DNA from: Saprospiraceae bacterium
Lineage (GTDB): Bacteria; Bacteroidota; Bacteroidia; Chitinophagales; Saprospiraceae
Length of the DNA stretch: 50,903 nucleotides
Assembly (NCBI GenBank): GCA_046314415.1
Contig: JBKBWT010000001.1
Location: 1,160-52,062 of the forward strand
Direction of reading: 5' to 3'
Part shown: piece by piece, positions 993 to 48,000 of the stretch
Numbering within the stretch: the stretch's first letter is position 1
Layout of the letters: the number at the start of each line of letters is the position of its first letter
Made by a program: the position numbers and the translations under genes
The notes under the pieces: generated by a model
What the model was told of the DNA's origin: nothing
The model's input: only the letters and a program-made list of their open reading frames with translations
The model's database searches: none

Positions 993-1049
993 GGCTATTG
1001 TAATTTGCTGATATACTAATAATTAGCACATCGACGAATCTTTATAATA

Positions 1050-2057: not shown

Positions 2058-2147
2058 TTTTCAGAGCTTAATCATAGTTGGACACCGTTGAAGATCCGTT
2101 GAGCGGTTGATTGCATTTAAAACTCAACCTTTCACCCCTTTAACCTT

Positions 2148-2531: not shown

Positions 2532-2678
2532 GGTGTTTTAGCGTTAGGTGTTTTGGTGTTAGCGTTTCTAAAACTCCGACGTACTATCGTACTCTAACAC
2601 CAATTTTAACAAGAAAAGCCCCGCATCGCACTAAGTTCGGATGGGAGCTATATTCTTTTATTCTCAACATAAGAATGG

Positions 2679-2879: not shown

Positions 2880-2965
2880 TGCTATAAAAATTTGAAATGA
2901 GAGATAAGAAAGGAGAAATTCTAACCGATTTTTCAAATTTCATCTTTCAAATTTCACATTTATGT

Positions 2966-3508: not shown

Positions 3509-3747
3509 TTTAAAGAACTTTTATACTACCGCCGGCAAAGGCGGGTGCAAAGATAAAATCTTTTTCAAAAACTAAGGTAATAGTTTTTACATAAAAAATC
3601 GCTGTTTTTTTCGATTATTGCATGTAAATTCTAAGCCACCCTACGTTATACAAACGTAATTTAACATATAACGCCCTTTCCAGACAAATAGTCGTTAATT
3701 AATCTGTGGTTAACATTACTATCTCCAGCAAAAGTTCCCAAAAAAAT

Positions 3748-3755
3748 TAATTTTG
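3748..3755 (+). promoter_or_regulatory. candidate -7 promoter box TAATTTTG (TAnnTTTG) upstream of the giant surface-protein gene
   Basis: Exact match to the Bacteroidota -7 consensus, 51 nt upstream of the ATG at 3806. This is a motif match only. Confidence 0.3.
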
Positions 3756-3805
3756 CCGCTACTTCTGGCTAAACTACACGTCATAACATAAAACAGACCT
3801 CATAC

Positions 3806-26662: not shown

Positions 26663-27220
26663 AGCGTCTTTTTGTCAGTTTATAATTATCTCTTTAATCA
26701 TAATGCATGCCTCAGATTGCAATACATTGGTTTTCAAAGCATTAATTAACAATAAGTTCCTGATTCGTAAATATTAATATATCTAAACACTCAATATAAT
26801 ATATAATAAAATAAAAATATTATGTACTATATAAGCCTTCGAACCGGATCAAACTTTTATAAAACAAAATATGCAGTCTCCTGACGCCAAAACATCCGGT
26901 TATTTCTTTGATATATTACATAAGTAATAATTAAACGATGTAAAGTCTTGCGAATCAAATATCCATAGGGAAACATAGAAAAAAGAAGCGCGCGCCTAAA
27001 AACACTGCATATTTTCTACATGCCTATGTAATAGGAAGATTAAAAAAATTATGCCTTCTTTACAGTAGTAAAAATGTTAGCTTTTCAACTGCGAGTATAG
27101 GTTGATTTTGGGTCATCTTTATTATAAATGCACTTTTCTGGCTGAAGCGTTTAAAAAGTTATTTACATTACCTATAGTAACTCAATAAGGACGCTAGTGC
27201 AGTAAAACTGTAAGTTGTTT

Positions 27221-27252
27221 AAAGGTGAGCTATGTACTCACCTTTAATTTTT
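27221..27252 (+). terminator. orphan rho-independent terminator (no annotated upstream ORF)
   Basis: AAAGGTGAG / CTCACCTTT forms a perfect 9-bp stem with a 7-nt loop. AATTTTTGG follows on the + strand only. Confidence 0.55.
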
Positions 27253-27360
27253 GGTTAATGTAATAAGTCCTTTTGTTATGAACATAATTTATATCATATT
27301 TTAAGTTAAATAAATTAATTTAAAATATAGTATAAGTTTTAATCATGAGTATGAATACGA

Positions 27361-27396
27361 CTGGTGGGCACCCAATGGTGCCTGCCAGTTTTTTTT
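27361..27396 (+). terminator. orphan rho-independent terminator (no annotated upstream ORF)
   Basis: CTGGTGGGCACC caat GGTGCCTGCCAG forms a 12-bp stem. Its two non-Watson-Crick pairs are G-U on the + strand but C-A on the - strand. Eight Ts follow. Confidence 0.7.
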
Positions 27397-27660
27397 AACT
27401 CGCCTAGCATGCAGATTGCACAAGACGAATTGTATTATATTCCATTATAATATTATAGTACTAAATAATAAAATGCGGAATAAATTACTACCCTAGCAGC
27501 ACTAAAACAAACTGCTTAGCTTCAATTCAACGAACGCTCAGCAACACCTGTGCATTGGTATTGCGCTTTTACATTTGATGTAATCATATATTTATTTGAT
27601 GCTGATTTTGCGGGCTGTGGTAAAAACCAAGGAAGGCACAATTATCCAAAAAGTAGGAAA

Positions 27661-27687
27661 CCCCTGTAAATCATAGACTTACAGAGG
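27661..27687 (-). terminator. probable ancestral terminator of the tRNA-Met gene, displaced by the island insertion
   Basis: This 9-bp hairpin is fully paired on the minus strand apart from one position, which is a G-U wobble there but a C-A mismatch on the plus strand. It lies directly downstream (in the minus sense) of the duplicated tRNA 3' end at 27696-27710. Confidence 0.4.
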
Positions 27688-27695
27688 TCTTTTTT

Positions 27696-27710
27696 GTAGC
27701 GGCGACAGGA
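27696..27710. repeat. attL: 15-bp direct repeat GTAGCGGCGACAGGA (duplicate of the tRNA-Met 3' end)
   Basis: It is identical to 37328-37342. The flanking T-runs are also similar (TTTTT-GTAGC versus TTTTTCGTAGC). Confidence 0.8.
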
Positions 27711-27862
27711 ATTGTATGTTTACAAACTGCAATAAACTTTGAAAAATATTTTTCTCTCCTTTTTACCTGATAATCAGTTTATTACAAGTTTTTATTTATC
27801 AAAGTTTGTCTTTTTGAATAATTTTATTGTAGTAAATAGATACTAATTTCGTACTAATAAGT

Positions 27863-27870
27863 TACTTTTG
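27863..27870 (+). promoter_or_regulatory. candidate -7 box TACTTTTG (TAnnTTTG) upstream of the integrase gene
   Basis: Motif match 14 nt upstream of the integrase ATG, which implies a very short leader. Confidence 0.25.
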
Positions 27871-27883
27871 TATTCAGATACAA

Positions 27884-29194
27884 ATGCAAAAAAAAAATAG
27901 TACGATGCCAATACACCGAGGAACGCCTAAAGTAAGATTTAACCTTCAACCGGCTAAGGCTGGAGCCACTCAATACATTATCCTGTTTTTCCATTATCCG
28001 TATCGAGGGGAAACCGTCCGTTTTCGCTTTTCGACAGGTTATCGGGTGGATCCGAAGCATTGGTCAAAAGATACACAGCGCGTAAAGTTTACCAGGGCGT
28101 TACCAGAATGCCAGGAAATAAACAACCGGCTGAACGAACTGGAAAACCACACTATTGCAATTTGGGAGGAAAACAAAAAGAATCCTATTCACCCGGAAGA
28201 TTTCCGGCAGGAGCTTATCTATAAAATGGGCTGGTTATTCCGACCGGAAGAAACCAAACAAACCCCTACCCTTTTCCAGTTTATCGAAGTATTCATTCAG
28301 CAAGAGCAAGCCAAAGCCAACGCAGAGCGGGGAACCTGGAAAAAATACCTTACGACCTTCAACCACTTAAAAGCATTCGCCAAAGACACCGGGAAGCCAG
28401 TAGATTACCAAGACATTAATTGGCAATTTCGCCACGCCTTTTCAGAATGGTGTTTCGCAGCGCCGCGCAAACACTCCGCCAACACAGTAAATAAAAGCCT
28501 GGACACTATCCGCAAATTTATGCGGGAAGCACTCAAAGCTGGCTACCACAGCAACAGCATTTTTGAGCAAAAAGGATTTTCGATAAAGCGGGTAAAGGTC
28601 AGGAATAAAGTGAGGTTAGATCGGAACGAACTGCAAACCCTTTTGGAGCTTGATTTTTCACACACGCCGCGCCTGGAGCGCGTACGCGATCTTTTCATCG
28701 TAGGCGCTTATTCTGGACAGCGGTATAGTGATTGGAATCAGATCAACCGGGAAAGCGTGTTTGTGAATGAAAAAGGCAAAGAAATGGTGAAAGTTATGAC
28801 CACCAAAACGCGCAAACAGGTAATTATTCCGGTGCTGCCTGAGCTTAAAAAAGTGCTGGAAAAATACGAGTACCAACTCCCTGAATTGGCAATCCAAAAC
28901 TTTAACACCTGGCTGAAAGAAGTCTTTGAAATTGCCTTTGCCGATGCTAAGTTTTTGCGGATTTACAGCGAAGGCGGCAACACCAAAAGCGAAATTATAG
29001 AAAAATGGAAGAAAGCATCTTCCCACGCTGCCCGGCGCTCGTTTGTCTCTAATTTCTTGTTATTAGGCATTCCAGCAAAGTTAATTATGCAGATCACCGG
29101 ACACGCCACAGAAAAGCAGCTATACGAGTACGCAGATATTGAGCCGGAAGAAATTGCAGAGAAGTTCCTCAATGAAGTAGAGGCGAGAAAGTAA
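27884..29194 (+). CDS. int: site-specific tyrosine recombinase (phage integrase family, Bacteroidota type with N-terminal arm-binding domain)
   Basis: 436-aa ORF. The catalytic signature is present: GQRYSD (Arg), SHAARRSF (H-x-x-R) and TGHATEKQLYEYADI (His...Tyr). Confidence 0.92.
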   Translation: MQKKNSTMPIHRGTPKVRFNLQPAKAGATQYIILFFHYPYRGETVRFRFSTGYRVDPKHWSKDTQRVKFTRALPECQEINNRLNELENHTIAIWEENKKNPIHPEDFRQELIYKMGWLFRPEETKQTPTLFQFIEVFIQQEQAKANAERGTWKKYLTTFNHLKAFAKDTGKPVDYQDINWQFRHAFSEWCFAAPRKHSANTVNKSLDTIRKFMREALKAGYHSNSIFEQKGFSIKRVKVRNKVRLDRNELQTLLELDFSHTPRLERVRDLFIVGAYSGQRYSDWNQINRESVFVNEKGKEMVKVMTTKTRKQVIIPVLPELKKVLEKYEYQLPELAIQNFNTWLKEVFEIAFADAKFLRIYSEGGNTKSEIIEKWKKASSHAARRSFVSNFLLLGIPAKLIMQITGHATEKQLYEYADIEPEEIAEKFLNEVEARK

Positions 29195-29339
29195 ATAATT
29201 TGCTTACACTTTAAACATAAAATAATTACACTGTACGATGACTTTAACCGACTTGTAACGATGACGTAAAAAACCGGCGCTGACACTCCGCCAAGACTGA
29301 ACAGCGCCGGAATTTTTAAAGCTAAAAATTTTTACAAAG

Positions 29340-30821
29340 ATGCGTATTTCCAAGCAATTGCCCAAACGGGGCGAGTTTTGGGATAGGTACGCCGGTTTAG
29401 TACCGACGTTGAACAAACTATCCTACTTAACGCAGCTCATTAGCTTCTTATCTGAGCTGTCCGTTTTCTACCTGCTTATTAAGCCAAAAGTGCAAGAGGT
29501 TGCACCCGATCACGCGCACGGCATAGCCATTGCCGGGGCGCTAGTTGTGGCGCTCACTGTTGAAATTGGCGTAAGAACCTTTTTCCCCTACACAGTAAAG
29601 ACGGTTTTGTATCGGCGTTGGTCCGGGCTGGATTTGCCAATGTCGCTGTTTATTTGGGCTTTCACCCTGGGTTTATTTGGCGTTTCGCTATTCACCAGCT
29701 TTCAAGGCAGCCACGACGTCGTTTATGATGCAATGACCACCGGAAAGAGCCGGGATCGTATCGAGCAAACGCTCACTGGTGAAACGGAATCCATTTTAAA
29801 GCGATTTGCGGCGGACAGCCTCCAGACGGCGCAAAGCTACGACGGGCAAATAATCGCTTTGCGTGAAGCAGAGAACGCAGCCGTGACCGCAAAACGGGAA
29901 CAACTGCGGAGCATCGAAAAACGCGAAGCTGCAACCGGGCAAAGCTACCTTTCGCAAAAGTCAAAGTTGCGGGAAGCGATTGCCGCTATTACTGCGGAGA
30001 ATGCTGCTAAAATTGCCGATCTGCAAAGCAAGAAAGCCGATGCCCTTTCTACCCTACTTGCCAAACGCGAAACCAAGACCGGCGAAGCTAAAGACCTGGC
30101 TTCAAATGGTGTTGCACATCTGGAGCAAAAAGGCACAAAATACGGTGGTTGGGTAGCATGGTTCACCGTCATTTGCCACGCATTTTTAGCTATTGCAATC
30201 ACAATGAATGAGATCGTCAAAAAGGGAAGCGACATTCAGGAAAAGCCAATCTTATCAACCTTCCATTTTGACCCGTCCGTTGTCGCTGAATGGTGGGGCG
30301 TACTTTCCAATAAGTACCAGGTGTGGGCGCGTACCAAAATACGCACCTGGGCAGAGAAAACGCCGGAGCCGCCAAAGCCTGGAGCATTACCGGTGCTTTA
30401 CGAGCATGAGCCACAGCAACCGCGGGTTGTGATTGGTGGGTTTATGCCTAATGGCTCCATTACTAATGCAGCAAGCAATTCAAGCGCTAATGCAGGAGGT
30501 ACTAATGCAACCATTAGTAATGCAAGCCCATTTGTCAGCAATTGCCAACATTGTGGCAATGGTTTTGAGACTTTCGACAAGTCGGTTATTACCTGCGATG
30601 AATGCCTGGGGAAAGCAGCGAATGAGGCGACAAACGGTAATACGCCTAATGCAACCATTAGCATGGGGCAAAAACAATGCGAATTGCCTTCTTGCGGCGC
30701 TGCCTTTACGCCAAAAGTGAATTGGCAAAAATACTGTTGTCAAACGCACCAAATGCAACACCACGCTGAAAAGCACGGCAAACCCTTTGACCCTGCTAAG
30801 TTTCACAATAAAAAGCCATAA
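29340..30821 (+). CDS. hypothetical membrane protein with a long coiled coil and C-terminal Cys-rich (zinc-ribbon-like) region
   Basis: 493-aa ORF with about 4 TM segments (aa ~27-48, 61-83, 100-121, 270-289). An Ala/Glu/Lys-rich helical region spans aa ~140-260. The Cys-rich motifs are CQHC...CDEC (aa 402-422) and CELPSC...CCQTHQMQHH (aa 447-475). Confidence 0.6.
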   Translation: MRISKQLPKRGEFWDRYAGLVPTLNKLSYLTQLISFLSELSVFYLLIKPKVQEVAPDHAHGIAIAGALVVALTVEIGVRTFFPYTVKTVLYRRWSGLDLPMSLFIWAFTLGLFGVSLFTSFQGSHDVVYDAMTTGKSRDRIEQTLTGETESILKRFAADSLQTAQSYDGQIIALREAENAAVTAKREQLRSIEKREAATGQSYLSQKSKLREAIAAITAENAAKIADLQSKKADALSTLLAKRETKTGEAKDLASNGVAHLEQKGTKYGGWVAWFTVICHAFLAIAITMNEIVKKGSDIQEKPILSTFHFDPSVVAEWWGVLSNKYQVWARTKIRTWAEKTPEPPKPGALPVLYEHEPQQPRVVIGGFMPNGSITNAASNSSANAGGTNATISNASPFVSNCQHCGNGFETFDKSVITCDECLGKAANEATNGNTPNATISMGQKQCELPSCGAAFTPKVNWQKYCCQTHQMQHHAEKHGKPFDPAKFHNKKP

Positions 30822-30824
30822 GCA

Positions 30825-31067
30825 ATGAAATGGATAATCAATCTATGCCACGATACAAAAGCAAGTTCCGAAGGTGAAAAATATTATATCAATGCTTATA
30901 AAAATGGTAAAGTGGTAAATGCAACCACTCATTTATTTAGCAAGGAAATAAAAGTTAAACCCGTTGTCGGCAATCAAATTCACCACGGAAATGCTATTTA
31001 CCAGATCAAAAAGGTTGAGCAAATTACCGCATTTGGAGACGATAACCATTATATGATTTTTGTATAA
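30825..31067 (+). CDS. hypothetical protein (80 aa)
   Basis: ATG-initiated ORF 3 nt after the preceding stop. I recognise no family. Confidence 0.5.
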   Translation: MKWIINLCHDTKASSEGEKYYINAYKNGKVVNATTHLFSKEIKVKPVVGNQIHHGNAIYQIKKVEQITAFGDDNHYMIFV

Positions 31068-31084
31068 TTCGTAAGTAAATAACC

Positions 31085-31369
31085 ATGAATAATAAACCAA
31101 TAGAAAGCCCTGAAAACAAAGCTTTAGCCATTTTGGACGATGCACAAATCAAAGACCCGGCAGACGCATTAGAAATGCTCGAATGTCTGGGTAATGTATT
31201 CGCCTTTTACTTTGGGCATTTCCCAAGGATAAGAGGCGTAGAATTCGATGAGGAATGGACGGATAAAGTTTTTTATGTACATGAAAAATTGGCAGAGCTT
31301 GTAAAGAAAGGGCATCTTTTACTAAATGAAGTTTCAAAAAAGACTGATTGTCAAACCATTAAAAAGTAA
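31085..31369 (+). CDS. hypothetical protein (94 aa), paralog of the next ORF
   Basis: It shares the motif L..L.n.F.FY..H.P.I.G ... Y.V...L..L with 31375..31641. Confidence 0.55.
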   Translation: MNNKPIESPENKALAILDDAQIKDPADALEMLECLGNVFAFYFGHFPRIRGVEFDEEWTDKVFYVHEKLAELVKKGHLLLNEVSKKTDCQTIKK

Positions 31370-31374
31370 ATAAC

Positions 31375-31641
31375 ATGTCAGCAATATTATATGAATATAA
31401 AGCACCACAGCAAGATTTTAACCCGGAGGAAATCCTCGAACGGGCTGGATTACGAGAGCTTGATTTGAATATCAAGTCTTTACAAATTCTCAATGAAATG
31501 TTTGTGTTCTACCTGGCACACTATCCTCAAATATTTGGCTTGCCTTGTGATAGCCGTTTTCACGATATATACGGGGTGTGCGACCGGCTTTCTGGCTTGA
31601 TCGTCAATGCTCAACTCTATTTTGAAAAACAAGAAGAATGA
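31375..31641 (+). CDS. hypothetical protein (88 aa), paralog of the previous ORF
   Basis: Compare LQILNEMFVFYLAHYPQIFG here with LECLGNVFAFYFGHFPRIRG in the preceding ORF. Confidence 0.55.
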   Translation: MSAILYEYKAPQQDFNPEEILERAGLRELDLNIKSLQILNEMFVFYLAHYPQIFGLPCDSRFHDIYGVCDRLSGLIVNAQLYFEKQEE

Positions 31642-32011
31642 CCTGGAGTAAGTGTCCACCCGTTTTTAAGCGTGTGGACACACTAACTAATGTAATACGA
31701 TAAAAAAAATTGATTTTTTTTTGTAACAGTCAGTAGGATATAATTTATTGACAATTAAGTTAAGTATAATCATAAAATTGAAATTAAACACCTTTTTTTA
31801 TCGTACTACATTGGTTTTCAAAGCGTGGGGTATTGCAAAATTATCACTGTTTTGTTACTTTTGTTGCAGCTACTAGGGATAACAAGTCAAACCCACGCTA
31901 TCAAAACACATCATTGAACGCTTTCTAAAAAACTACGGAAAAGATAAGACCTGTCAATTTTAATGCTACGCATTAAGCGTACCAATATTTTATCATTTAT
32001 TCAATAATAGT

Positions 32012-32302
32012 TTGAAAATGAAGCAATTAACCATTCTTGCAAAAAAGATTGAGGCACTTACTTTAGAGGTGCAAGCTATTCGGTACTGCATGGAATCCCC
32101 TTCCGTTCCTGGTAATTTTAAAGACAGTGATCTTTTAACAAAACAAGAGGTTGCAGCGCTTTTAAGTGTTTCGTTATCAAGCATTAACGTGTACATGAAA
32201 AACGGAACATTAAAGCCATTGCATTTTGGTACGGGTAAGCGGAAAATTGTCCGTTTTCGCCGGTCGGATGTGCAATTACTCATTTCACAAAAAGCGGCGT
32301 AA
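32012..32302 (+). CDS. excisionase-type helix-turn-helix DNA-binding protein (likely start ATG at 32018)
   Basis: LLTKQEVAALLSVSLSSINVYMKNGTLKPLHFG...IVRFRRSDVQLLI is the MerR/excisionase-like HTH_17 pattern. The track start is TTG. Confidence 0.7.
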   Translation: MKMKQLTILAKKIEALTLEVQAIRYCMESPSVPGNFKDSDLLTKQEVAALLSVSLSSINVYMKNGTLKPLHFGTGKRKIVRFRRSDVQLLISQKAA

Positions 32303-32622
32303 TGGAAAACCCATTTGAAATACTTTCACAGAAATTAGATCAGGTGTTAACGGAGCTTTCAGAGCTTAAAACGAAGCACCAGGAGCCACCGGCAGCGCCT
32401 ACACCGGCGCCACCGGCATTAGAGCCTGAAAAGCGATTTTACAAGGTAAAAGAAGCTGCTTTTATTTTAAGTTGTTCAGCCGGTACGATTCGCGGGTACA
32501 TCAGAACGGGGAAATTGAAAGCTATAAAGAATGGGCGAGGCATAAACGGAACAGTACGAATAGAAAACACTGAAATTGAGCGATTTATCCAATCTATGAA
32601 ACAAAAAAAGGTTGACCTATGA
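32302..32622 (+). CDS. excisionase-type helix-turn-helix DNA-binding protein
   Basis: FYKVKEAAFILSCSAGTIRGYIRTGKLKAIKNG...VRIENTEIERFI matches the same HTH pattern. The start overlaps the previous stop (TAATG). Confidence 0.7.
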   Translation: MENPFEILSQKLDQVLTELSELKTKHQEPPAAPTPAPPALEPEKRFYKVKEAAFILSCSAGTIRGYIRTGKLKAIKNGRGINGTVRIENTEIERFIQSMKQKKVDL

Positions 32623-33968
32623 CAGCCAAACCTTCTAAACGAAATTTTACGAATAATACGGGCAAAGATAACGGGTTATTGCCTGAAAATCAAGCGGAAA
32701 CGAAAAAAGTTGTCGTTATTCCTGCTGGTGCAGATGCAAACGAGCCAACCAGACAGGAACAAGCGGATTCAGAACAAAGCGAAGGCAAGTTAGACCCACG
32801 TTTAAAAAACCTGGAGGACAAACTCCGCAAAAAGTGGACTTTCCGGTATAATTCTGTTACTTGCTCAACGGAAATTCAAAATGGCAAAAAATGGACTCGC
32901 TTAGATGATTTTACCCTGCATTCAATTGTAAGAGAATTAAGAAAAGAAGGCGTTGCACTTGCCAGTAAAACCCGCGTTGCTGAATTGCTAGAAAGTGATT
33001 TTTGCAAGAAGGTAAATCCAATTGAACAATATTTTGAGAACCTCCCAAAACCTGGCAACCGTGACTACATTTTAGACCTGGCAAAAACCGTAATGCCAAC
33101 AGATGATTATACTATTGAAACCTTTTACAAATTTTTCAAAAAATGGTTGGTTGGCGCTGTTGCCAACGTCTTTATAAAAGATCGATGTGCAAACCAGGTT
33201 TGTTTTATTCTTTCCGGGAAACAAGGCGCTTTTAAATCTACCTGGATTCGCAATTTATGCCCTCCAGCGCTGGAGCCGTACTACATTGAAGGCGGTTTAG
33301 ACCCCGATGATAAAGACAGCATTGCCGCCACTACATCAAATTTCATATTCAATTTAGATGACTACTTCGCGGGAATCACTTCGCGTAAGATCAACGAATT
33401 CAAAGGGTTATTAACAAAAAATACGGTCAAGATACGCCGACCGTATGCCCGTTATTCCGAGGAAATGCCCAAAATCTGTTCGTTCATTGCGTCATCCAAC
33501 GAACAAACATTCCTCCATGATCCGACCGGCAACCGGCGCTTTTTGCCTTTTGAGGTGCAAGCGATTGACATTGAAGCCGCTAAGAAGATAGATATTAATT
33601 CAGTTTGGGCGAAGGCTTACCAGGAATATAAAGCAGGCTTTGAATATTGGCTGACTAAAGATGACCAAACAGAATTGGAAAGACATAATACCAGGTTTGA
33701 AGTTCAAAGTTCTGAGTATGAGTTATTAGTGCAATGCTTTAGAAAGCCGGAAACCGGGGAAAAAGGTATAATGCTTACCACGCAAAACGTCATTGATAGA
33801 ATAAAGGAAAACCTTGGTACTTCTATGACATTTTCCCAAAAGAAGATAGGAGAGGCGCTGCGAAAAGCAGGCTTCGAGCGGAAATCTTGCAGAGTTGGAG
33901 GAAAAGCGCCGGTTTATGCCTGGGAAGTAATGACAGTTGAAATGCCAGACATAGAAGGCGAAAAATAA
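32619..33968 (+). CDS. VirE-family (virulence-associated protein E-like) P-loop NTPase, replication helicase/primase-associated
   Basis: 449-aa ORF. It has a Walker-A-like LSGKQGAFKSTW, then FNLDDY...EFKGLLT...IRRPYARY...ICSFIASSNEQTFLHDPTGNRRFLPFEV, which matches the VirE (PF05272) pattern. It has an ATGA start/stop overlap with the upstream ORF. Confidence 0.85.
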   Translation: MTAKPSKRNFTNNTGKDNGLLPENQAETKKVVVIPAGADANEPTRQEQADSEQSEGKLDPRLKNLEDKLRKKWTFRYNSVTCSTEIQNGKKWTRLDDFTLHSIVRELRKEGVALASKTRVAELLESDFCKKVNPIEQYFENLPKPGNRDYILDLAKTVMPTDDYTIETFYKFFKKWLVGAVANVFIKDRCANQVCFILSGKQGAFKSTWIRNLCPPALEPYYIEGGLDPDDKDSIAATTSNFIFNLDDYFAGITSRKINEFKGLLTKNTVKIRRPYARYSEEMPKICSFIASSNEQTFLHDPTGNRRFLPFEVQAIDIEAAKKIDINSVWAKAYQEYKAGFEYWLTKDDQTELERHNTRFEVQSSEYELLVQCFRKPETGEKGIMLTTQNVIDRIKENLGTSMTFSQKKIGEALRKAGFERKSCRVGGKAPVYAWEVMTVEMPDIEGEK

Positions 33969-33986
33969 CAGTCTTTTGCTCATTTT

Positions 33987-34194
33987 ACTTACTACATCTT
34001 ACTACAAGTAAGTAAACAATTGAAATACAGATACTTAAATGTAGTAAGATAGATTTTGGAAGTTACTACAAAGTTACTACAACTTACTACAAAGTGAATT
34101 GTAGTAAGTTTTACTGAAAGCAAAAGAATATCTTACTACACTGTAAGTAATTAATTATCAATAAAATACAGTGGTTTGTAGTAACGTAGTAAGA
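33987..34194. repeat. iteron-like array: 10 copies of the core TTACTACA (6 forward, 4 inverted) within 208 bp
   Basis: Forward copies are at 33987, 33997, 34061, 34072, 34082 and 34131. Inverted copies (TGTAGTAA / GTAGTAAG) are at 34040, 34100, 34177 and 34185. The array lies between the VirE-like and primase-like genes. Confidence 0.85.
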
Positions 34195-34235
34195 TAAAAC
34201 ACCAAAGTTCAAAACTTTTTAAAATTTACTTAATC

Positions 34236-35282
34236 ATGGAATCAGTTTTGAATGTGAATGTAAGTTGTTTTGCCAACTACACCAGCGCAGACAACCCGCG
34301 CCCGGTGAACCTTTTGCGCTGGCTGACTTCCGATAAATACCGCGCCGAAGTAGAAGCGATCCGCCAAACCAGCGACAAAGCCGACCGTGACCGATTAAAG
34401 GCAAAATTACCAGCTATCACACCGAGCGGACTATTTACACGCCGGGAAGCTGGCTGTTTGGTGCAACATTCCGGTTTACTCCAGTTTGATATTGACTTCA
34501 AAGAAAACCAGCACATTGCCAATTTTCCAGACCTCAAAAAGCAGCTGTGCAATATCAAAAACGTGGCTTATTGCGGGTTATCCGTTTCCGGCGCTGGCTA
34601 CTGGGGTTTGATACCCATATCGGAGCCACAGCGCCATAAAGAACACTTTGAAGCCTTGCGCCAATACTTTGCCGACCTTGGGGTAATGCTTGACGATAAG
34701 CCCAAAAACGTGGCTTCTTTGCGTGGCTATTCCTACGACCCGGAAGGATATTTCAACCACAGCGCCACGCCTTACCGGCAGTATATCCAAGCGGAGCCGG
34801 AACGATACGAGCGCCGATCAGCGCCACAGCCGCGCCCACAGTCCACAGAAGCGGAAAAGGTAGAGGCGATCCTTTCACAGATCAATGCAGGACGCATAGA
34901 TATTACCGGCAGCTATGGCGATTGGTTTGCAATCGGGTGCGCCCTGGCTAATACCTTTGGCGAAGCTGGCAGGGATTACTTTCACCAGCTGAGCCAATAT
35001 CACAGCGAGTATAGCTATAAGAACACAGACCGGCAGTTTGACCACTGCAAGCGAGGCAAGGGAGGCAAAAGCATTGCCACACTATACGAGATTGCAGAAC
35101 GGTACGGCGTACTTTACCGCAATGGATTGAGCGCCGCTCCAGCGCCACCACAGCGCCACCAGGCAGCAAAAAGAAACGCATTGCCACCAGGTCACACGGT
35201 AAAGCAGTTCACTAGCGTGCTGACTGGTGTATCCTTCGACCTGGAGTTAGACGCGCACGGCATACCGGCAATGTGGCGGTGA
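34236..35282 (+). CDS. primase-like protein (BT4734-like/VirE_N N-terminal domain plus PriCT-type C-terminal domain)
   Basis: 348-aa ORF. The N-terminal part KAKLPAITPSGLFTRREAGCLVQHSGLLQFDIDF matches the BT4734-like pattern. GSYGDWFAIGCALANTFGEAGRDYFHQLSQYHSEY resembles the primase C-terminal (PriCT) motif. Confidence 0.7.
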   Translation: MESVLNVNVSCFANYTSADNPRPVNLLRWLTSDKYRAEVEAIRQTSDKADRDRLKAKLPAITPSGLFTRREAGCLVQHSGLLQFDIDFKENQHIANFPDLKKQLCNIKNVAYCGLSVSGAGYWGLIPISEPQRHKEHFEALRQYFADLGVMLDDKPKNVASLRGYSYDPEGYFNHSATPYRQYIQAEPERYERRSAPQPRPQSTEAEKVEAILSQINAGRIDITGSYGDWFAIGCALANTFGEAGRDYFHQLSQYHSEYSYKNTDRQFDHCKRGKGGKSIATLYEIAERYGVLYRNGLSAAPAPPQRHQAAKRNALPPGHTVKQFTSVLTGVSFDLELDAHGIPAMWR

Positions 35283-35593
35283 AAACTTGCAATTATGCGT
35301 GCATATTTCCCCAAAATTTGCCCAAACTTAATTAAGCAAAAGCAAATCCGCGCCCTAGGGTATATGCGTGTAAGAAGGGTAATATTTTGAAAATCAAGCA
35401 AATAAAAGCCTTAAAACAAATACTTTATATGTCGAGGTATGTTACAAACTTTTTGTGTGAATTAAAATTTTATTTTACAGTATTTATTATTGTTATTTTT
35501 AATTTAAAATGTACCTAAAAAAAGGTAGTAATTCACTGTCCTTTCAAAAAATGACCCTTTTTTGCACCTTGCGACAGCTAAAAAATACTAGCA

Positions 35594-36286
35594 ATGAAGA
35601 AATTTTTTAATCTTCTGAAATCCAAGAAAATGAAGAATTTAGAACCAATTTTGTTAGATGAACGTACCGATCGTTCAGAATTGCAGTTGCTTCAGCTGAA
35701 GCAGCGCCGCGAAGAAAGTTATTCCCTCCTGGAAGCATTGCGCGTTGCCCTTGAAAAACTTTTAGGCGAAGCGCCCGACTTACACCAGATTGAGCAATTT
35801 ATCAGAATTTCAGACGAAAAAAGCGCCACGATTGAAGCTCTTAAAACTTATATGAAGGTCAAGCAAATAGACCTTGATATAGATTTAAATAGTGGATTTC
35901 AGAGCGTTCGCCTTCCTGGGGAGGTAAAGACGTTGGTTGACGCCTGGCAAGCCCTCAATTGGCACTCCCCGGAAGATTTTTCTCCGTATTGGTCGCAAGA
36001 AGATTTTGCCTTTCAACCGCTGCCAATCAACCCGGAAGAAGAAGCGAAAATCAGAGAGCGAAACCGGGTCTATGGTACGCAGGAACTCAATGAAATGTAC
36101 CAACATTTACGCATCAATTGCAACCTGATAAATTTTTATCGCAGGGAGAATCCTACATTACCATTTGATGCCTTTCCAAAAGTTTGGCAACCGTTTTTGA
36201 ACCGGGATGACAAAGGCAATTTTACGGTCAAGGAATCAGAATTTTTGACGCCTGGAGAGACTTACCAGGCGTTTGACGAAAGATAG
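35594..36286 (+). CDS. hypothetical protein (230 aa)
   Basis: ATG-initiated ORF with protein-like composition. I recognise no family. Confidence 0.55.
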   Translation: MKKFFNLLKSKKMKNLEPILLDERTDRSELQLLQLKQRREESYSLLEALRVALEKLLGEAPDLHQIEQFIRISDEKSATIEALKTYMKVKQIDLDIDLNSGFQSVRLPGEVKTLVDAWQALNWHSPEDFSPYWSQEDFAFQPLPINPEEEAKIRERNRVYGTQELNEMYQHLRINCNLINFYRRENPTLPFDAFPKVWQPFLNRDDKGNFTVKESEFLTPGETYQAFDER

Positions 36287-36377
36287 CATCTTGTTTTTTT
36301 ATCATATGTTGGTTAAAATCGTTTTTACTGCCGTCCTTAATTGGACGGCATTTTTCAAATCAAAATGAATAATTATC

Positions 36378-36818
36378 ATGCAGAATAATGAAGAAATGAA
36401 GGCGAGAATTGAGGCGCTGGAAGCAATTGTCGTGAAACAAAATGAGGAAAATAAAAGGCTTCGAGAGCAGTTAGACGCGGTACAATCTACCATGTCAAAT
36501 GAGGAATTTTTACTCAAAAGTCAGGCAGCAAAAGCGGCGGGTGAAATGCCTACATTCAAAGTTGAGGGCAAACTTTACTGTTTTACCGCTCCAGCTTTCA
36601 AACTGAATGGAATCAAGTACACAGCCTCCGAAGCGGTCAAGGATGTGCGATTGTTAAAGGAAATGATTGAAAAAGGGTACGGTGTCATTAAAGAAGTAGG
36701 GGAGCCGGAAAGCAAGAAAGATTACTCCGCTATTCCAATGATAAGCCGGGAACAAACATTCTTTTCCACACCTAGCCATTCCAGCGATAGCGGTATCCAA
36801 ATCACAGTAGTTGAGTAA
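36378..36818 (+). CDS. hypothetical protein (146 aa) with N-terminal coiled coil
   Basis: ATG start, with a heptad-like segment MKARIEALEAIVVKQNEENKRLREQL. Confidence 0.5.
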   Translation: MQNNEEMKARIEALEAIVVKQNEENKRLREQLDAVQSTMSNEEFLLKSQAAKAAGEMPTFKVEGKLYCFTAPAFKLNGIKYTASEAVKDVRLLKEMIEKGYGVIKEVGEPESKKDYSAIPMISREQTFFSTPSHSSDSGIQITVVE

Positions 36819-36846
36819 AATTTTCCAATTTCAAAAAAGCATTCTT

Positions 36847-37152
36847 ATGAATAAACAACAAGAAACTGACTGGAAACTCCGCTTTCATTACGGGGTAATT
36901 GATGAAGTCAAAGCCTTCTTTGGTTTGTCGGAAGACCTCACACCGGCGGAAGTTCATCACTTTATGATTGAACAGAATAAAGCCAAAGGAACAATGGTTC
37001 CCAGGGCATCCGCACCGGCAGCGCCGGTTACAAAAGTGACGACACCAGCGCCTAAAGTCGAGCCAAAAAAAGAGGAAATACCAGCAACACAAGCCTGGAG
37101 AATGTCAGCCTTTAACCAGCGACTTGAAAAGAAGTTTCGAGGGCAGAAGTAA
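36847..37152 (+). CDS. hypothetical protein (101 aa from ATG 36847; the track ORF starts at TTG 36811)
   Basis: The ORF has a Pro/Ala/Lys-rich linker. The ATG at 36847 avoids overlap with the preceding gene. Confidence 0.45.
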   Translation: MNKQQETDWKLRFHYGVIDEVKAFFGLSEDLTPAEVHHFMIEQNKAKGTMVPRASAPAAPVTKVTTPAPKVEPKKEEIPATQAWRMSAFNQRLEKKFRGQK

Positions 37153-37205
37153 ACATTCAGCAAAGGTTTTTTACATCGGTTACGTTTTTTTTATAAAGAA
37201 GATTG

Positions 37206-37233
37206 AGGCAGCCCAACGGGTTGCCTTTTTTTT
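37206..37233 (+). terminator. rho-independent terminator closing the island gene string
   Basis: GGCAGCCC aac GGGTTGCC forms an 8-bp stem and is followed by 8 Ts. Confidence 0.75.
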
Positions 37234-37273
37234 ATTTCTTTCTGCTAAAGATACTAACCAAAATACTAACGAG

Positions 37274-37320
37274 CGGAAAAGAAAAAGCCTAAAACATTGA
37301 CAAACAATGAATTAGGCTTT
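37274..37320 (-). terminator. terminator of the tRNA-Met gene (island-borne)
   Basis: On the minus strand, AAAGCCTAA ... TTAGGCTTT forms a 9-bp stem followed by TTCTTTTCC, directly downstream of the tRNA 3' end. Confidence 0.55.
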
Positions 37321-37328
37321 GTTTTTCG

Positions 37329-37401
<73 letters not shown>

Positions 37402-37613
37402 ATGTTAAACCACTCTCTCCAACAGGGTATTTTGCTTTTTAGTTCAAAAGAGTCCCCTGTTTTTTAAATGGTTTGCAAAGATAAGTACTTTTCTTAACTT
37501 TGTCAAGTCCTTCCTTAATTAAATATCGCCTAAGCTACCTTTTCGGGTGAAAATACCTGAAATTGCTAGATTTTTATTATCTTCCAACTCAAAGTTTACA
37601 CCTAAATTCCCTT

Positions 37614-40007
37614 ATGCGCTTCTATCTACTTAGCATTTTACTGTGCTTAGTCCATGGGCTGCACGCACAGGTAGTTTGTTCGCCAGAGCAAGCGGAGCTG
37701 GTTATTGAGATTATGACCGACCGCTACGGGTACGAAACTTCCTGGGAATTGACCGGGAGTTCCGGTACACGTTATAAATTTTTGCCGCCATTTAGTTATA
37801 AAAATCAGCGCTTACACCGCGATACGCTCTGCCTGCCAGCAAATGACTGCTTCGCTTTTACAATTTATGATGTATTTGGTGATGGCATTGATGCACCGGG
37901 TTATTATTTGGTGCGCTTAAATGGTGATACGCTCCAGCGAGGCGGCATTTTTTATAAAGAAGAATCTTTATATTTAAATTGCCCATCAGGAATGGTTTGT
38001 GCAGTAGCAACGTCCATCACGCCCGGCACTTACACCGCAGCTTTCGATGATACCTGGTACGAGTTTATCCCTGATACGTCAGGAATTTATCGGATCTCAA
38101 CCCGAAATTTAAATACCTGCGACACTAAAATCTGGGTATATACTACTTGTGATGGCATTACCATTGCCGAGGACAATCAAAGTACGGTTTTTTATAATGA
38201 CAATGCGACCGCGCAAACGCCACAGGCAGAAGTCCGTGGCTTTTTTACGGCGGGCAAAACGTATCGGATTCGCATGGGCGATCATAATAATGCCTGCCGC
38301 GATAGTATTCGCTGGAATTTGACTTTTGAAGGTCCGCTGCGCGGCTGCACCAATCCTAATGCTTGTAACTACAATCCATTGGCAACAATTAACGATGGCT
38401 CCTGTTTGCTGCCGGGCGACCGCCGTTGCCCGAAAGGTCCTGATTTGCTGATTCGTCAGGATACGTTGCTACAATCGATTCGCCTGGATACCATTCATTC
38501 CGAAGACCTCTGCCTGATTCAGGAAGGCTGTGTACGCGGCTATGGGGTACGTAATGTTTTACGCTTTACAACACAAATACATAATATTGGCGAACGCGAT
38601 TATTATATTGGTAAACCAAATTATAATAACAATCAATTTACCTGGAATAATTGTCATAATCACTTTCATTATGATAATTATGCCGAATATTTAGTCATCG
38701 ACGAATCTGGTAAAAAAATGCCCATTGGCTTCAAAAGTGGCTTATGTATTACTGATTTTGGTTGCGAGCCTGGCTATAATCCAAAGTACAGTTGTGATAA
38801 TATGGGCATCAGCGCACATTGCTTTGATGCGTACTGGTCGGCGCTCAAGTGCCAATGGATTGACATAACTGATTTACCTGATGGGAGATACACATTAGTA
38901 GTACGCATCAATTGGAAAAATAGTCCCGATGCGTTAGGGCAAGTGGAAAAAGATTTGGATAATAATATCGCCCAGGTCTGTATTCGCTTAGACCGGAGTT
39001 CAGGCACCTTGAAATGCACCGTCGAGCAACCCTGTGATCCTTACCTCGATTGCGCGGGTATTCCTTTCGGCGAAACACAGCCCGATTGCCTGGGCATTTG
39101 CGGGGGTAAACGTTTATCGGGCGACGCGAATGAAAATGGACTACAGGAAATCGCCGACGCCGAGCAATACATCACGCTGCTGCTCGGTAATGACATCGAA
39201 CCCAATGCTTGTAATGATTTGAATGGTGATAGCGTCATCACGGTACAAGATGCAGTGCTGCTGGCTAGTTGCCTCAATTTTGGCGCGGCGCATCCACACG
39301 AAGGTGCCGGAATACACAATCACTGTCAGTTTCCCGTTGCCAATTTATTTAATACAAAAGATACTGTTACACTTGGCATTATGGGCGTAAACTGGGAGGA
39401 GCGTTACGTAGATATTGGGATTTTAAATCATACAACCAATATTACAGCCTATCAGTTTCGCCTTACGGGTGGCAGCATTAGCCACGTAGAAAGTCTGGTC
39501 GATGCTGCCACTTATCCGGTTACGCTGCGCACAAATATGAGCGAAGGTATGGTGATTGGCTTGTCCTATCGGGATTCGGTCATTCACAAATCAGAATTAA
39601 TGCAGCCGCTTTGTAGAATACATTTTTTTAATTTAAATCTATACACTATTGTAATTCAGGATATTATCTCAATTGTAAATAACAATTATGAACGCGTAGC
39701 CAATGCAATTATAAATGGCATTGCCGTAAAATCCACCACAACTCACATTAACAATATAAACAATATTATACAAGTACAAGTACGTCCAAATCCAATACAT
39801 GACGAAGCGCAGTTTGCTTTTTATAGCATTCAAAATCAGTATTTTACATTAGAAATTGTTGACTTAAACGGAAAGATCGTTCGACAATATGTCAACCTGC
39901 GTCCACCTGGTATCCGCATCAAGCGGGATGATCTGCCCGCCGGTATTTATTTTTATAAACTCATTGGGGAACGCAGCTATACTGCCGGTAAGTTTATTAT
40001 TCAATGA
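37614..40007 (+). CDS. secreted multidomain protein: lysyl-oxidase-like catalytic domain + dockerin + T9SS type A C-terminal sorting domain
   Basis: The track ORF starts at TTG 37563. The ATG at 37614 gives the signal peptide MRFYLLSILLCLVHGLHAQ. The LOX motifs CHNHFHY, KSGLCITD and CQWIDITD are present. Dockerin loops are DANENGLQEIAD and DLNGDSVITVQD. The C-terminus is ...RPNPIHDEAQFAF...LEIVDLNGKIV...LPAGIYFYKLIGE...GKFIIQ (Por secretion tail type). Confidence 0.85.
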   Translation: MRFYLLSILLCLVHGLHAQVVCSPEQAELVIEIMTDRYGYETSWELTGSSGTRYKFLPPFSYKNQRLHRDTLCLPANDCFAFTIYDVFGDGIDAPGYYLVRLNGDTLQRGGIFYKEESLYLNCPSGMVCAVATSITPGTYTAAFDDTWYEFIPDTSGIYRISTRNLNTCDTKIWVYTTCDGITIAEDNQSTVFYNDNATAQTPQAEVRGFFTAGKTYRIRMGDHNNACRDSIRWNLTFEGPLRGCTNPNACNYNPLATINDGSCLLPGDRRCPKGPDLLIRQDTLLQSIRLDTIHSEDLCLIQEGCVRGYGVRNVLRFTTQIHNIGERDYYIGKPNYNNNQFTWNNCHNHFHYDNYAEYLVIDESGKKMPIGFKSGLCITDFGCEPGYNPKYSCDNMGISAHCFDAYWSALKCQWIDITDLPDGRYTLVVRINWKNSPDALGQVEKDLDNNIAQVCIRLDRSSGTLKCTVEQPCDPYLDCAGIPFGETQPDCLGICGGKRLSGDANENGLQEIADAEQYITLLLGNDIEPNACNDLNGDSVITVQDAVLLASCLNFGAAHPHEGAGIHNHCQFPVANLFNTKDTVTLGIMGVNWEERYVDIGILNHTTNITAYQFRLTGGSISHVESLVDAATYPVTLRTNMSEGMVIGLSYRDSVIHKSELMQPLCRIHFFNLNLYTIVIQDIISIVNNNYERVANAIINGIAVKSTTTHINNINNIIQVQVRPNPIHDEAQFAFYSIQNQYFTLEIVDLNGKIVRQYVNLRPPGIRIKRDDLPAGIYFYKLIGERSYTAGKFIIQ

Positions 40008-45010: not shown

Positions 45011-48000
45011 TTATTTTCCGCGCAGAATCGTGAGCGAACCTTTTTGCTGTACCAGGTTGCCATCCTTATTGGTGTATTCCAATACAAAGTAATAAGGTCC
45101 ATCCGGCAGTGGGTCGCCACTCTGTGTGGTGCCTTCCCAACCAGATTGATAGTTATCTGCCTGGAATACCAGTTGTCCCCAGCGGTTGTAAATTTCCAGA
45201 TGGTTTTCGGCACTTTCATTACAAGTCACTCTAAAGTCTTCATTAGCGCCGTCTCCTTCCGGTGTAATAATTACTTTATCAACCAAACAGTCAGGATTAC
45301 CCGATTCACCAACAATGCCAGTGGCACTTGGCGCAGTACATCCCCGACTATCGGTCACGGCTACCATATAAGTACCTGCACATAATCCATCAATCATAGC
45401 ATCGCTGCTCATCGGCGCATTCCAGCGGAAAGTATAAGGAGTTGAACCACCTTCCACTACCGCAAGTGCCGAACCATTACAGCCATCTGTAGCCGGTTGT
45501 GTTTCTACTTTAACTTGAATTGGTTTAGGCTCAGCTAATGTAAATGAAGCGGTCACTTTACAATTATTGCCATCCGTAGCTACCACCTGGTAGGTACCAG
45601 GTCCACGATTCAACAAGAATGGACCAGCCTCCTGAGGCGTTGTATTCCATACAAAACTATAAGGTTTGCCAACTGCTCCACCAACTGCGTTTAGTACAAT
45701 TCTACCGTCGGTTCTACCTGCACAGGAAATCTGTTGAATATTGGCAACCACCTGAATCGAATCCGGCGGCACCACATTGATTTGCTTGGTAACCGTACAA
45801 CCAATTGCATCGGTCACCGCAACTTGATAAGCTCCGGCACCTACGCCATTCAATACAGGTGTAGTACCTAATACCGTAGTGCCACGACGCCATTGATAGG
45901 AGTAGTTGCCACTACCACTTTTGCCAGTCGCCTCGATGATACCATCGGTTGAAGTCGGGCAACTAATATCCGAACCATTGTAATCAGAAATCACTTCGAC
46001 ATCTGCATTCAAATTTGAATTGGAGCCAATGGTAAATTGTTTGGTCAAGGTATTACCCGACTGCTCCGTAACGCTCACCGTATAAACACCAGGTGCTACA
46101 TTTTTCAAGGTATCAGCAGTAGAAATTACCGTACCGGCAGCATTCCGCCAGGAATAACCATAAGGTTTGGTGCCTCCGGTAATACTCAATGCAATCACGC
46201 CGGTAGTATCCTGCGGACAAGCGGTGGCAACCGCAGCGCCATTGGCACGGAAAGTTGTCACCGGAATAGCAGGGAAGGTTTGCCGACAGCCATTCGCATC
46301 CTGTACGGTTGCAATAAAATTACCTTCGCAAAGATTGATAATCTGCGTGTTATTGCCGGTATTCGGTGTATTCCATTGTACACTGTAGGGTTGCTTACCT
46401 CCGGAGAAGGTAACACTAATGCTACCCGTACAACCTGACTCTTCGGTATCATGTTTTACCACACTGGCGACTTGAATAGGTGCCGGCTGTGGTACATCAA
46501 CACTGTCGCGTAATATGGTACCGAGATCATCGGTGATGGTATAAACCAACTTGCCACCGCTCAGATTATTCTTGTTTACAGTACCATTGTTATTTGACAA
46601 TGTCGTATTATCACTAAATGCAATGTTATAAGGAGCACGCCCGCCGTTAATCTGGAAGGACAGCGTACCGTCATTGTTGCCTGCACAAGTTACCCCTGTG
46701 ATCTGGCGATTGGCAGTTGAAAGCGGAATATTTTGCTCTGTCACATTGTAACAGCCACTATTCGTACAGCCGCGACTGTCAGTTACGGTTACACAGTATT
46801 CGTCCTTCCGCAAATTCGCCAAAGTATCCTTGGTAGAATTATCTTCCCATCTGATGGTATAAGGACCTGTACCCCCACTGATTGCCAGCACGATTCGACC
46901 ATTTGAACCACCCACACTTGCCTGCGTAATCTGCGCATTGAGTACAATCGGTGGATATTTGGTAATTTCAAAGCTGGAAGTATTGGTTCCTCCTTGACTA
47001 TCTGTAATCGTGACGGTATAAGTACCGGCTGCTACGTTATTTAAGTTTTGCGTGGTTGCACCATTGCTCCAACGGAAAGAATAAGGCGATGCTCCTCCGC
47101 TAACAGTCAGTATCACTGAACCAGTGGTCGTGCCATCACAAATACGATTTGCCTGTCCGGTTACGTTCAACGGTGCAGTAATACTTGCGCAGCGTGTAGC
47201 CGTACAATTCTGTGCATCCGTCACCGTCACACAATACTGGCCCGGCGTAGTCAAACCACTGAGGTCTTTTTGCGTAGAAGTATAATTATTGGGACCCGCC
47301 CAAGCGTAAGTATAAGTACCGGTGCCACCCGTTACCGTTATTGCAATAGCGCCATTGGTACCTTGTTGATTGATATTGGTAGGAACCATATTGCTAACCT
47401 GCACAGTTGATTGCGAAGCAACGTTCAAATTAGTGAGTGCAAACGTACAGCTCCGCGCATCCGTGATGGTAACAGCGTAAGTACCAACTGCCAGATTACT
47501 CTGTGAAGCAACATTGTCGGGCAACGAACCACTCCAGTTATACTGATATGGGCTCGTACCTCCAGATACATTTAAAGTAATGCCACCTGAATTAGCCGCA
47601 GCGCCGCAGGCGATATTGGTAATGTTGGAAGTTGCATTCAACGCGGCAGCTGGTTGGTTGACGTTATAAGTGCCGGTAACTGTCAAAGAAGTCGTTGCAT
47701 CTGTCACCGTTACTGAATACGTACCCGCCGGAATATTGGTCAAATCCTGCGTGGTCGCATTATTACTCCATCGATAGGTAAAATTACCAGAACCACCCTG
47801 TGGGGTAATATTGATAGCGCCCGTCGATTGCCCAAAACAGTTCACCCCTGTGATAGCAGGCACTGCCAGGGTCGGAGCAGCAGGTCCACTGCTACCAATG
47901 GTAACAGTTCCATTTTTAGTAGAGAAAGGCTCCGCTTCCTCATCTATATTATCCACCCCCATTGGTGCGGTAGGCGTTCCGGTAAAACTCAATGCAGCGG

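Follow-up and report, generated by a model that had tools for sequence, protein, structure and literature searches.

The locus described here raises the question of what kind of mobile element carries its own integrase and replication module but no recognisable gene for leaving the cell. It lies in a stretch of 50,903 nucleotides from a Saprospiraceae bacterium (NCBI GenBank assembly GCA_046314415.1, contig JBKBWT010000001.1, positions 1,160 to 52,062 of the forward strand); this whole stretch is called the window, and coordinates are those of the window unless a relative is named. A sequence-only reading had proposed that positions 27696-37342 constitute a compact element integrated in an initiator tRNA-Met gene and more similar to phage satellites than to integrative conjugative elements (ICEs) or integrative mobilizable elements (IMEs). 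Our analysis revealed that this 9.6-kb element of a Saprospiraceae-like bacterium is intact and belongs to a family not recognised before, whose members are 'hitcher' elements of ~10 kb that integrate, replicate themselves and live in Saprospiraceae-like Bacteroidota. Two points are firmly supported: it is an intact site-specific integrative element, and it is an autonomous iteron-controlled replicon without means of self-transfer. As to its lifestyle, we suggest that the family rides in the capsids of helper phages as a phage satellite, a reading to which we give roughly an even chance (about 0.5).

Insertion site and replication module

The element is inserted in the 3' end of an initiator tRNA-Met gene by site-specific recombination. 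A perfect 15-bp direct repeat, GTAGCGGCGACAGGA, was found at 27696-27710 and 37328-37342 and, with up to one mismatch allowed, at no other place in the 50.9-kb window. Its chance expectation was 0 in 100 shuffles, and the likeness continues beyond the 15-bp core, with 23 of 25 nt identical. The two copies bracket twelve open reading frames (ORFs), all on the plus strand, as had been described. The single tRNA of the window, identified by both ARAGORN and Rfam as tRNA-Met(CAT), occupies 37328-37401 on the minus strand, and the repeat corresponds to its positions 60-74; the last 15 nt of the intact tRNA, at its 3' end, make up the right copy (attR core, 37328-37342), and the left copy is the attL core (27696-27710). 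Since a C1:U72 mismatch atop the acceptor stem and a GGG/CCC anticodon stem with three G:C pairs are hallmarks of bacterial initiators, this tRNA-Met is of the initiator type.

The terminators flanking the tRNA record the same event. A hairpin with a 14-bp stem lies at 27658-27690 (minus strand), just outside attL and, on the tRNA's strand, directly after the left repeat, where the original terminator of the tRNA would be expected; it was detected by the terminator scan and by RNA folding (-20.8 kcal/mol, z -4.9). A different inverted repeat, at 37278-37326 (minus strand; -18.9 kcal/mol, z -6.2) and followed by a U-run, now lies next to the tRNA inside the element. The native terminator was thus pushed aside on insertion and a substitute came with the element, as is typical of elements that target tRNAs, and the scar of site-specific insertion proposed earlier stands in each of its parts. 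Twelve relatives show the same geometry, with tRNA 3'-end direct repeats flanking an integrase-bearing segment. For the excised element, an attP junction of GGCTTTGTTTTTC-GTAGCGGCGACAGGA-ATTGTATG is predicted, and for the empty site an attB of GAGGTCTTTTTT-GTAGCGGCGACAGGA-CTTGAACC.

Five of the twelve ORFs belong to clear families in Pfam, PHROGs and NCBIfam, and these agree with the gene content that had been read from the translations alone. The tyrosine integrase (27884-29194, plus strand) matched Phage_int_SAM_5 (PF13102) and Phage_integrase (PF00589) above the Pfam cut-off and Arm-DNA-bind_5 (PF17293) just below it; its translation shows the HxxR and C-terminal Y motifs, and its NCBIfam matches are Xer-like, all far below cut-off. 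Judged from this domain set, the integrase is of the Bacteroidota IntDOT/NBU-like type. Two small AlpA/excisionase-type HTH_17 proteins, o06 (32012-32302) and o07 (32302-32622), both on the plus strand, matched PF12728 (3.9e-8 and 1.3e-9) and excisionase families of PHROGs. The previously noted TAATG and ATGA start/stop overlaps, both of which are present, couple the translation of these two genes with each other and with that of the helicase gene. The VapE/VirE-type helicase (32619-33968, plus strand) matched PF05272 (2.4e-41), PF12990 (DUF3874) and PF19263 in Pfam, including the VapE-like_dom family, and helicase/primase families of PHROGs. The fifth protein (34236-35282, plus strand) is primase-like, with BT4734-like_N and PriCT_2 domains in Pfam, PHROGs matches and a far-sub-threshold PrimPol match in NCBIfam.

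The 267-bp spacer between the helicase and primase genes holds an iteron array with the consensus TTACTACA, marking the predicted origin of replication (33988-34195; ~10 iterons in both orientations). The window has 17 copies of its core, TACTACA, where 4.0 would be expected, and nine exact copies fall in 33990-34183; the array that had been reported from the sequence was thereby borne out together with the replication module as a whole. Arrays of this kind follow the helicase stop codon in 10 of the 13 relatives examined as well as in the window, each with 4-12 copies of an 8-mer within ~270 nt. The 8-mer differs by element: it is TTACTACA in the window, ATTCCACC in L044, TGGTGACA in L035, TGTAGACA in L041, TGTCACAA in L040 and L045, AACCGCAA in L046, CTAAGCCA in L056, AGTAATCA in L055 and L060, CTTGTGCA in L037 and AGTGTAAC in L075, where the array likewise lies after the helicase gene.

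The closest relative, L044, is the most informative for the function of these repeats. Its primase is 83% and its o10 protein 67% identical to those of the window, a DUF927-type protein stands in place of VapE, and the iterons of the same spacer are now ATTCCACC; all 11 matches to ATTCCAC in the L044 contig fall inside the helicase-primase spacer, against 0.84 expected. With helicase and iteron both swapped and the primase kept at 83%, the iterons go with the helicase and not with the primase, which supports the VapE helicase as the probable origin-binding initiator. A repeat array that sits beside an initiator gene and is specific in sequence to that initiator is what would be expected of an iteron-controlled replicon, and the co-variation of helicase and iteron offers a ready-made test of specificity.

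A family of related elements and its rare proteins

Searches with VapE, the primase, o02 and o10 found relatives only in metagenome-assembled genomes (MAGs) and metagenomes of Saprospiraceae, Lewinella/Lewinellaceae, Chitinophagales and unclassified Bacteroidia. Saprospiraceae, Lewinella and Chitinophagales are common in activated sludge and on aquatic particles. Thirteen elements, including that of the window, lie between 13-17-bp direct repeats of a tRNA 3' end and measure 9.1-13.3 kb, mostly ~10 kb; in the eight members with the layout of the window, the repeat precedes the integrase gene by 140-237 nt. Eight tRNA targets are used across the family, namely two different tRNA-Met genes (the window; L035 and L060), Ser-TGA (L041, L046), Arg-CCG (L040, L045), Pro (L052), Cys (L055), Lys (L056, L057) and Glu (L070). 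The locus provides the reference point for a coherent family whose boundaries are clear and whose replicon can be dissected. One MAG, Co_bin.344, contains two different family members (L041/L053 and L042/L058) with unlike integrases and o02 variants.

Clustering of the ORFs of 13 elements revealed a common backbone of the integrase, an o02-family protein (11 of 13), HTH_17 proteins and a helicase/primase, accompanied by element-specific iterons; apart from o02, the ORFs without a family are not conserved family-wide. The replication proteins swap freely among members and include a separate VapE and primase, a BT4734-VapE fusion, DUF3987 with DUF6371, DUF927, an AAA_25 helicase and, in L063, a G2P-type rolling-circle Rep.

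Seven ORFs of the window element (o02, o03, o04, o05, o10, o11 and o12) matched no family in Pfam (E up to 5), PHROGs, NCBIfam or PADLOC, in agreement with the estimate of about seven unrecognisable ORFs, and PADLOC in particular gave no defence family for them. Two of the seven, o02 and o10, are rare protein families unique to these elements and without known fold. The o02 protein (29340-30821, plus strand; 493 aa) is the hallmark of the family and the only non-enzymatic protein conserved throughout it. It has 3-4 predicted transmembrane helices, a long and confidently modelled helical hairpin (~135-297) and a C-terminal Cys-rich, zinc-ribbon-like motif, with a mean predicted local distance difference test score (pLDDT) of 59 in its AlphaFold2 model. 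In addition to the 11 elements of the clustering, homologues are present in L063, L065, L070 and L075, and a word-index search of 5.8 billion proteins found 10 proteins of the o02 family. The same search gave 7 homologues of o10 (35594-36286, plus strand), one of a small family of helical proteins, with an all-helical AlphaFold2 model (mean pLDDT 75), and an exhaustive hidden Markov model search of 1.84 billion representatives extended these to 67 representative clusters. Profile scans with o10 were uninformative, its alignment being too divergent for the locus finder. Neither o02 nor o10 gave a tblastn match in 50,697 phage records.

The remaining ORFs are small. The 80-aa o03 (30825-31067, plus strand) is followed by the tandem paralogues o04 (31085-31369) and o05 (31375-31641), both on the plus strand and 29% identical to each other (BLASTP, E 5e-9); both are kept in L044. 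The variable cargo position holds o11 (36378-36818), with a coiled-coil N-terminus, and o12 (36811-37152), both on the plus strand; o12 has a partial homologue in L044. Sequence searches of o02, o11 and o12 against PDB yielded nothing meaningful. Terminators were predicted by the terminator scan after o10 and after o12, the latter (37205-37227, plus strand) closing the operon of the element. The GC content of the element is close to that of its flanks, and its AT skew stays positive over the whole length, as fits genes that all point the same way.

Between o05 and o06 lies a 370-bp intergenic control region (31642-32011), a candidate promoter/operator of the second operon. A hairpin, GTGTCCAC...GTGGACAC (31652-31682), stands directly 3' of o05 and is conserved in L044; after it, between the two gene blocks, comes a 36-nt inverted repeat (31685-31720/31781-31816) that is 81% complementary around a 60-nt loop. 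The region may also serve as a packaging site (pac) or an origin of transfer (oriT); for the latter role, the inverted repeat at 31685-31816 is no more than a lead. The iteron core TACTACA also occurs singly here, at 31804-31810 (plus strand) upstream of the HTH_17 operon, and at 27828-27834 (minus strand), ahead of the integrase gene. These two copies may connect transcription with binding of the initiator, or may have arisen by chance.

In the flanking DNA, ~1 kb without any ORF (26663-27695; GC 0.32-0.36) separates a DUF1003 gene from attL. It gave no Rfam match and may be regulatory or may be the decayed trace of a previous insertion. The gene beside the tRNA (37563-40007) encodes a lysyl-oxidase-domain protein with a type IX secretion system (T9SS) C-terminal sorting domain, a combination that is unusual in bacteria. 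Two very large ORFs are also present in the window, at 3806-11029 (plus strand; 2407 aa) and 45011-49735 (minus strand; 1574 aa).

Weighing a satellite lifestyle

Across Pfam, PHROGs and NCBIfam, the twelve ORFs of the window element gave no match to a relaxase, coupling protein, type IV secretion system (T4SS), capsid, portal, tail or lysis family, nor was any found among 128 accessory ORFs of 15 family members, and the statement that the element lacks recognisable transfer and virion genes was upheld. A search of the window ORFs at E up to 5 gave no relaxase domain, and so the Mob relaxase with cognate oriT that marks iMOB/NBU-type IMEs is missing. The mating-pair-formation/T4SS genes and relaxase of an ICE are absent in the same three databases, as are the major capsid, portal, terminase, tail or lysis genes of a prophage; both of these readings were ruled out on gene content. 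The absence of capsid, portal, tail and terminase families also means that the element is not itself a phage, as the generic definition of a satellite requires (PMC11389934). The genes defining particular satellite groups are likewise missing from the twelve ORFs: for P4-like elements, sid/psu/delta/epsilon with an alpha primase-helicase (PHROGs and Pfam gave generic helicase/primase and excisionase matches only), and for phage-inducible chromosomal islands (PICIs) and capsid-forming PICIs (cfPICIs), terS, cpm, ppi, rpp or own capsid genes.

We favour a phage satellite lifestyle because of the narrow, satellite-like size range of the family, a gene logic shared with P4, PICIs and PICI-like tycheposons, the lack of relaxases, the phage-derived accessory genes of the relatives and their defence cargo, which known satellites likewise carry (10.1101/2020.12.28.424599; PMC9618062; PMC11389934). 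Phage-derived genes occur in a cassette in which an o10 homologue stands directly before a 222-aa coiled-coil protein and a Peptidase_S49 protein, mostly with a 60-aa ORF between the latter two. It occurs in L040 (11824-14407), L041 (11694-14762), L045 (10001-12584), L046 (7105-9703) and L047, and in L048 and L050 as far as their truncated contigs reach. The S49 proteins of L040 and L041 matched phrog_53, 'head maturation protease', at E 1e-45 to 1e-53, and among phage proteins the L045 protein is closest to proteases of Bacteroidota phages, led by that of Polaribacter phage Leef_1 (32% identity over 93% of the length). The cassette moves among elements with unrelated replication modules and has no capsid gene alongside. 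We also tested o11 and o12 of the window as diverged copies of the 222-aa protein; they are unrelated to it. Further phage-type genes of the relatives are an AntA antirepressor (L052) and dUTPases (L055 and L060), and on contig L075 terminase genes border a family-type module. Defence cargo comprises an EAD11-TIR-AAA_35 STAND protein with a second AAA_35 protein and a TPR protein (L036, 13032-18739), a DUF2806/Abi_alpha protein (L039, 6971-7855) and an MmeI-type restriction-modification enzyme (L057, 12864-16334).

Under such a lifestyle, a signal, most likely phage infection or induction, would switch on the HTH_17 operon, and the integrase together with an HTH_17 excisionase would cut out the 9.6-kb circle. 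The VapE helicase would then bind its cognate TTACTACA iterons directly downstream of its own gene and, with the primase, amplify the circle. In the least certain step the amplified DNA would exit the cell in helper-phage capsids, and o02, o10 and the small ORFs would have roles in helper manipulation, exclusion or as cargo.

Several observations weigh against this reading. No terS, cos/pac site, capsid-size-redirecting gene or protease is recognisable in the copy of the window, and the phage-derived genes all belong to relatives. The terminase genes of contig L075, a DUF5681 (terminase small-like) gene and a Terminase_3 large-subunit gene, lie co-oriented 440 nt upstream of the L075 module (1-9939 of Logan SRR27778303; integrase, o02-like protein, two HTH_17, AAA_25 helicase and AGTGTAAC iterons); with no tRNA, repeat or terminal overlap, the contig gives no basis for assigning them to the element. 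Relatives of the large subunit at 44-46% identity are in 23-40-kb IMG/VR contigs. Scans of IMG/VR with VapE, the primase, the o02 profile, o10, o11 and the S49 protease gave no relative of the element, and no helper prophage is visible in the 50-kb window. The roles of o02 and o10 are guesses since no known fold was matched: the o10 model had no match at E <= 0.001 in PDB or BFVD and no viral fold, and the o02 model gave only helical and meaningless matches. Neither an empty attB nor an attP junction or excised circle was found in the searches run. Exact-protein look-ups of the flanking genes led to two short Logan contigs of the same organism, both ending before the junctions; the read set SRR31360863 contains this organism; look-ups of the integrase, VapE and lysyl oxidase gave no record; the attL/attB 32-mer had no match in the JGI metagenomes; and the neighbours of DUF1003 homologues in 32 genomes showed no synteny with the window, none having a tRNA beside the gene in the arrangement seen here. 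Finally, the element may be mobilised in trans by conjugation, as an oriT is not recognisable from sequence. The proposal that the element is satellite-like rather than an ICE or IME has accordingly gained support short of proof: the relaxase- and T4SS-free family and the phage genes of its relatives favour it, and a packaging gene, an IMG/VR relative and an empty site or circle were not found.

The alternative that survives best, unlikely as we consider it, is that the element is an oriT-only IME (iOriT) of NBU-like descent that lost its relaxase or never had one, and that is excised, nicked at a cryptic oriT and moved by the relaxase and T4SS of a conjugative transposon or IME of Bacteroidota residing in the same cell. 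The domain set of the integrase, the HTH_17 pair, the VirE/DUF3874 protein and the BT4734/PriCT protein are families typical of conjugative and mobilizable transposons of Bacteroides. NBU1 itself has the integrase IntN1, the primase-like PrmN1 and a tRNA 3'-end target. The large inverted repeat of the 370-bp spacer could serve as oriT, and oriT-only elements are thought to be common (PMC11389934). However, no relaxase or Mob protein occurs in 15 family members, whereas real IME families usually have relaxase-bearing members; the accessory genes of the relatives (protease, Ant, dUTPase, terminase neighbour) derive from phages and not from conjugation systems; and so elaborate an autonomous replication module is unusual for NBU-type elements.

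Distinctly less probable is an integrative, plasmid-like cargo shuttle that uses no capsids and spreads, e.g., by membrane vesicles or transformation, as proposed for cargo-carrying tycheposons, with o02 tethering the circle to the membrane for export or segregation. It would account for o02 as the one non-enzymatic, family-wide protein, with transmembrane helices combined with a probable DNA-binding zinc ribbon, and for the plasmid-like swapping of replication modules, including the rolling-circle Rep of L063; the absence of family members from the IMG/VR scans also fits, and tycheposons are enriched in vesicles (10.1101/2020.12.28.424599). It leaves the phage-derived protease, Ant and terminase genes of the relatives unexplained, though, and both the role of o02, whose low-confidence model has no fold match, and vesicle loading are conjectural. 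A comparably doubtful idea makes o02, as a polytopic membrane protein with a DNA-binding zinc ribbon, the universal defining gene of a Bacteroidota-specific hitcher: it would couple the amplified circle to the envelope for a transfer that follows neither classical conjugation nor simple capsid hijacking, for instance by loading vesicles or by passing the DNA to a membrane-assembling helper, and the o10/coiled-coil/S49 cassette would be an add-on that sabotages or re-tools the capsid maturation of the helper.

We regard it as highly improbable that the element is a stranded or domesticated, immobile island whose ORFs persist because they are recent or serve the host, e.g., in phage defence or exclusion. 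The missing empty site and excised form, the GC content close to that of the flanks and the defence cargo of relatives would suit such an island, but none of the twelve closely spaced ORFs is disrupted, the two repeat copies match perfectly and the integrase has its motifs, and the eight tRNA targets of the relatives together with the module swap in the closest of them argue for an active, recombining family. A very small temperate virus, with structural proteins among the seven ORFs lacking a family and o02 as a membrane or structural component, would have the ~10 kb of corticovirus-like and other small membrane-containing phages and could point to the G2P-type Rep of one relative, but it is scarcely credible, as no candidate for a packaging ATPase or a jelly-roll or HK97-like protein was found, o10 is all-helical without a viral fold, and ORFs that, except for o02, are not family-conserved are unfit as capsid genes.

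Should the satellite lifestyle prove true, phage parasitism would be extended to a new phylum and would include satellites that have a head-maturation protease but no capsid gene; if it is not confirmed, the family becomes a candidate for an undescribed route of transfer.

Comparison with known systems

For Proteobacteria, Firmicutes and, lately, marine picoplankton there are good descriptions of phage satellites and other helper-dependent elements; for Bacteroidota there are almost none outside the relaxase-bearing NBU/IME group. With P4 and with the PICIs, among them the Staphylococcus aureus pathogenicity islands (SaPIs), the element shares an integrase, AlpA/xis-like proteins, primase/helicase genes, an iteron origin, a size class of 10-15 kb and defence cargo in the family. 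In the pri-rep-ori arrangement of SaPIs the origin lies directly downstream of the rep/helicase gene, as it does here, and the ori and crr of P4 consist of octamer iterons, again as in the element. Unlike these satellites, it has no homologue of sid/psu/delta, cpm, ppi/rpp or terS in PHROGs, and all of its genes are co-oriented, with no divergent repressor recognised. By its defining genes, the element is not a P4-like satellite, PICI, cfPICI, ICE or prophage.

A second comparison is with the PICI-like tycheposons and virion-encapsidated integrative mobile elements (VEIMEs), marine elements that target tRNAs and have been detected in capsids and vesicles (10.1101/2020.12.28.424599; PMC9618062). 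The likeness is architectural only and covers a tyrosine recombinase, insertion at a tRNA 3' end (with different integrases and different tRNAs), ~10 kb in length, no conjugation genes, VirE-type helicase and primase modules, AlpA/excisionase-type regulators and variable cargo including defence genes. The differences are those of phylum and habitat, of the Bacteroidota SAM_5/Arm_5 domain set in the integrase, and of o02 and o10, which are not described in either report (10.1101/2020.12.28.424599; PMC9618062). Moreover, VEIMEs are defined by encapsidation, which for our element is a proposal, and PICI-like tycheposons have terS or a major capsid protein gene, neither of which is present in this copy. 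The minimalist PICMI satellites of Vibrionaceae (PMC10803314) resemble it in their reduced gene content, their lack of capsid remodelling and their need of a helper for everything beyond integration and replication; unlike it, they are smaller, belong to another phylum and share no homology, and their packaging has been shown experimentally (PMC10803314).

The NBU1/NBU2 mobilizable transposons of Bacteroides agree with the element in phylum, in a size of ~10 kb, in a tyrosine integrase acting at a tRNA 3' end, in a primase-like gene and in small excision proteins. The name NBU stands for 'non-replicating Bacteroides unit'. In contrast, our element carries a full helicase-iteron replicon, and neither it nor any relative has a Mob relaxase. 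NBU1 is cited as an IME (PMC11389934), and NBU-type mobilizable transposons are the nearest described neighbours within the phylum, a group from which the element is set apart by the lack of a relaxase. It is best described as a helper-dependent integrative replicon with a distinctive o02/o10 backbone, in a lineage for which no such elements have been described.

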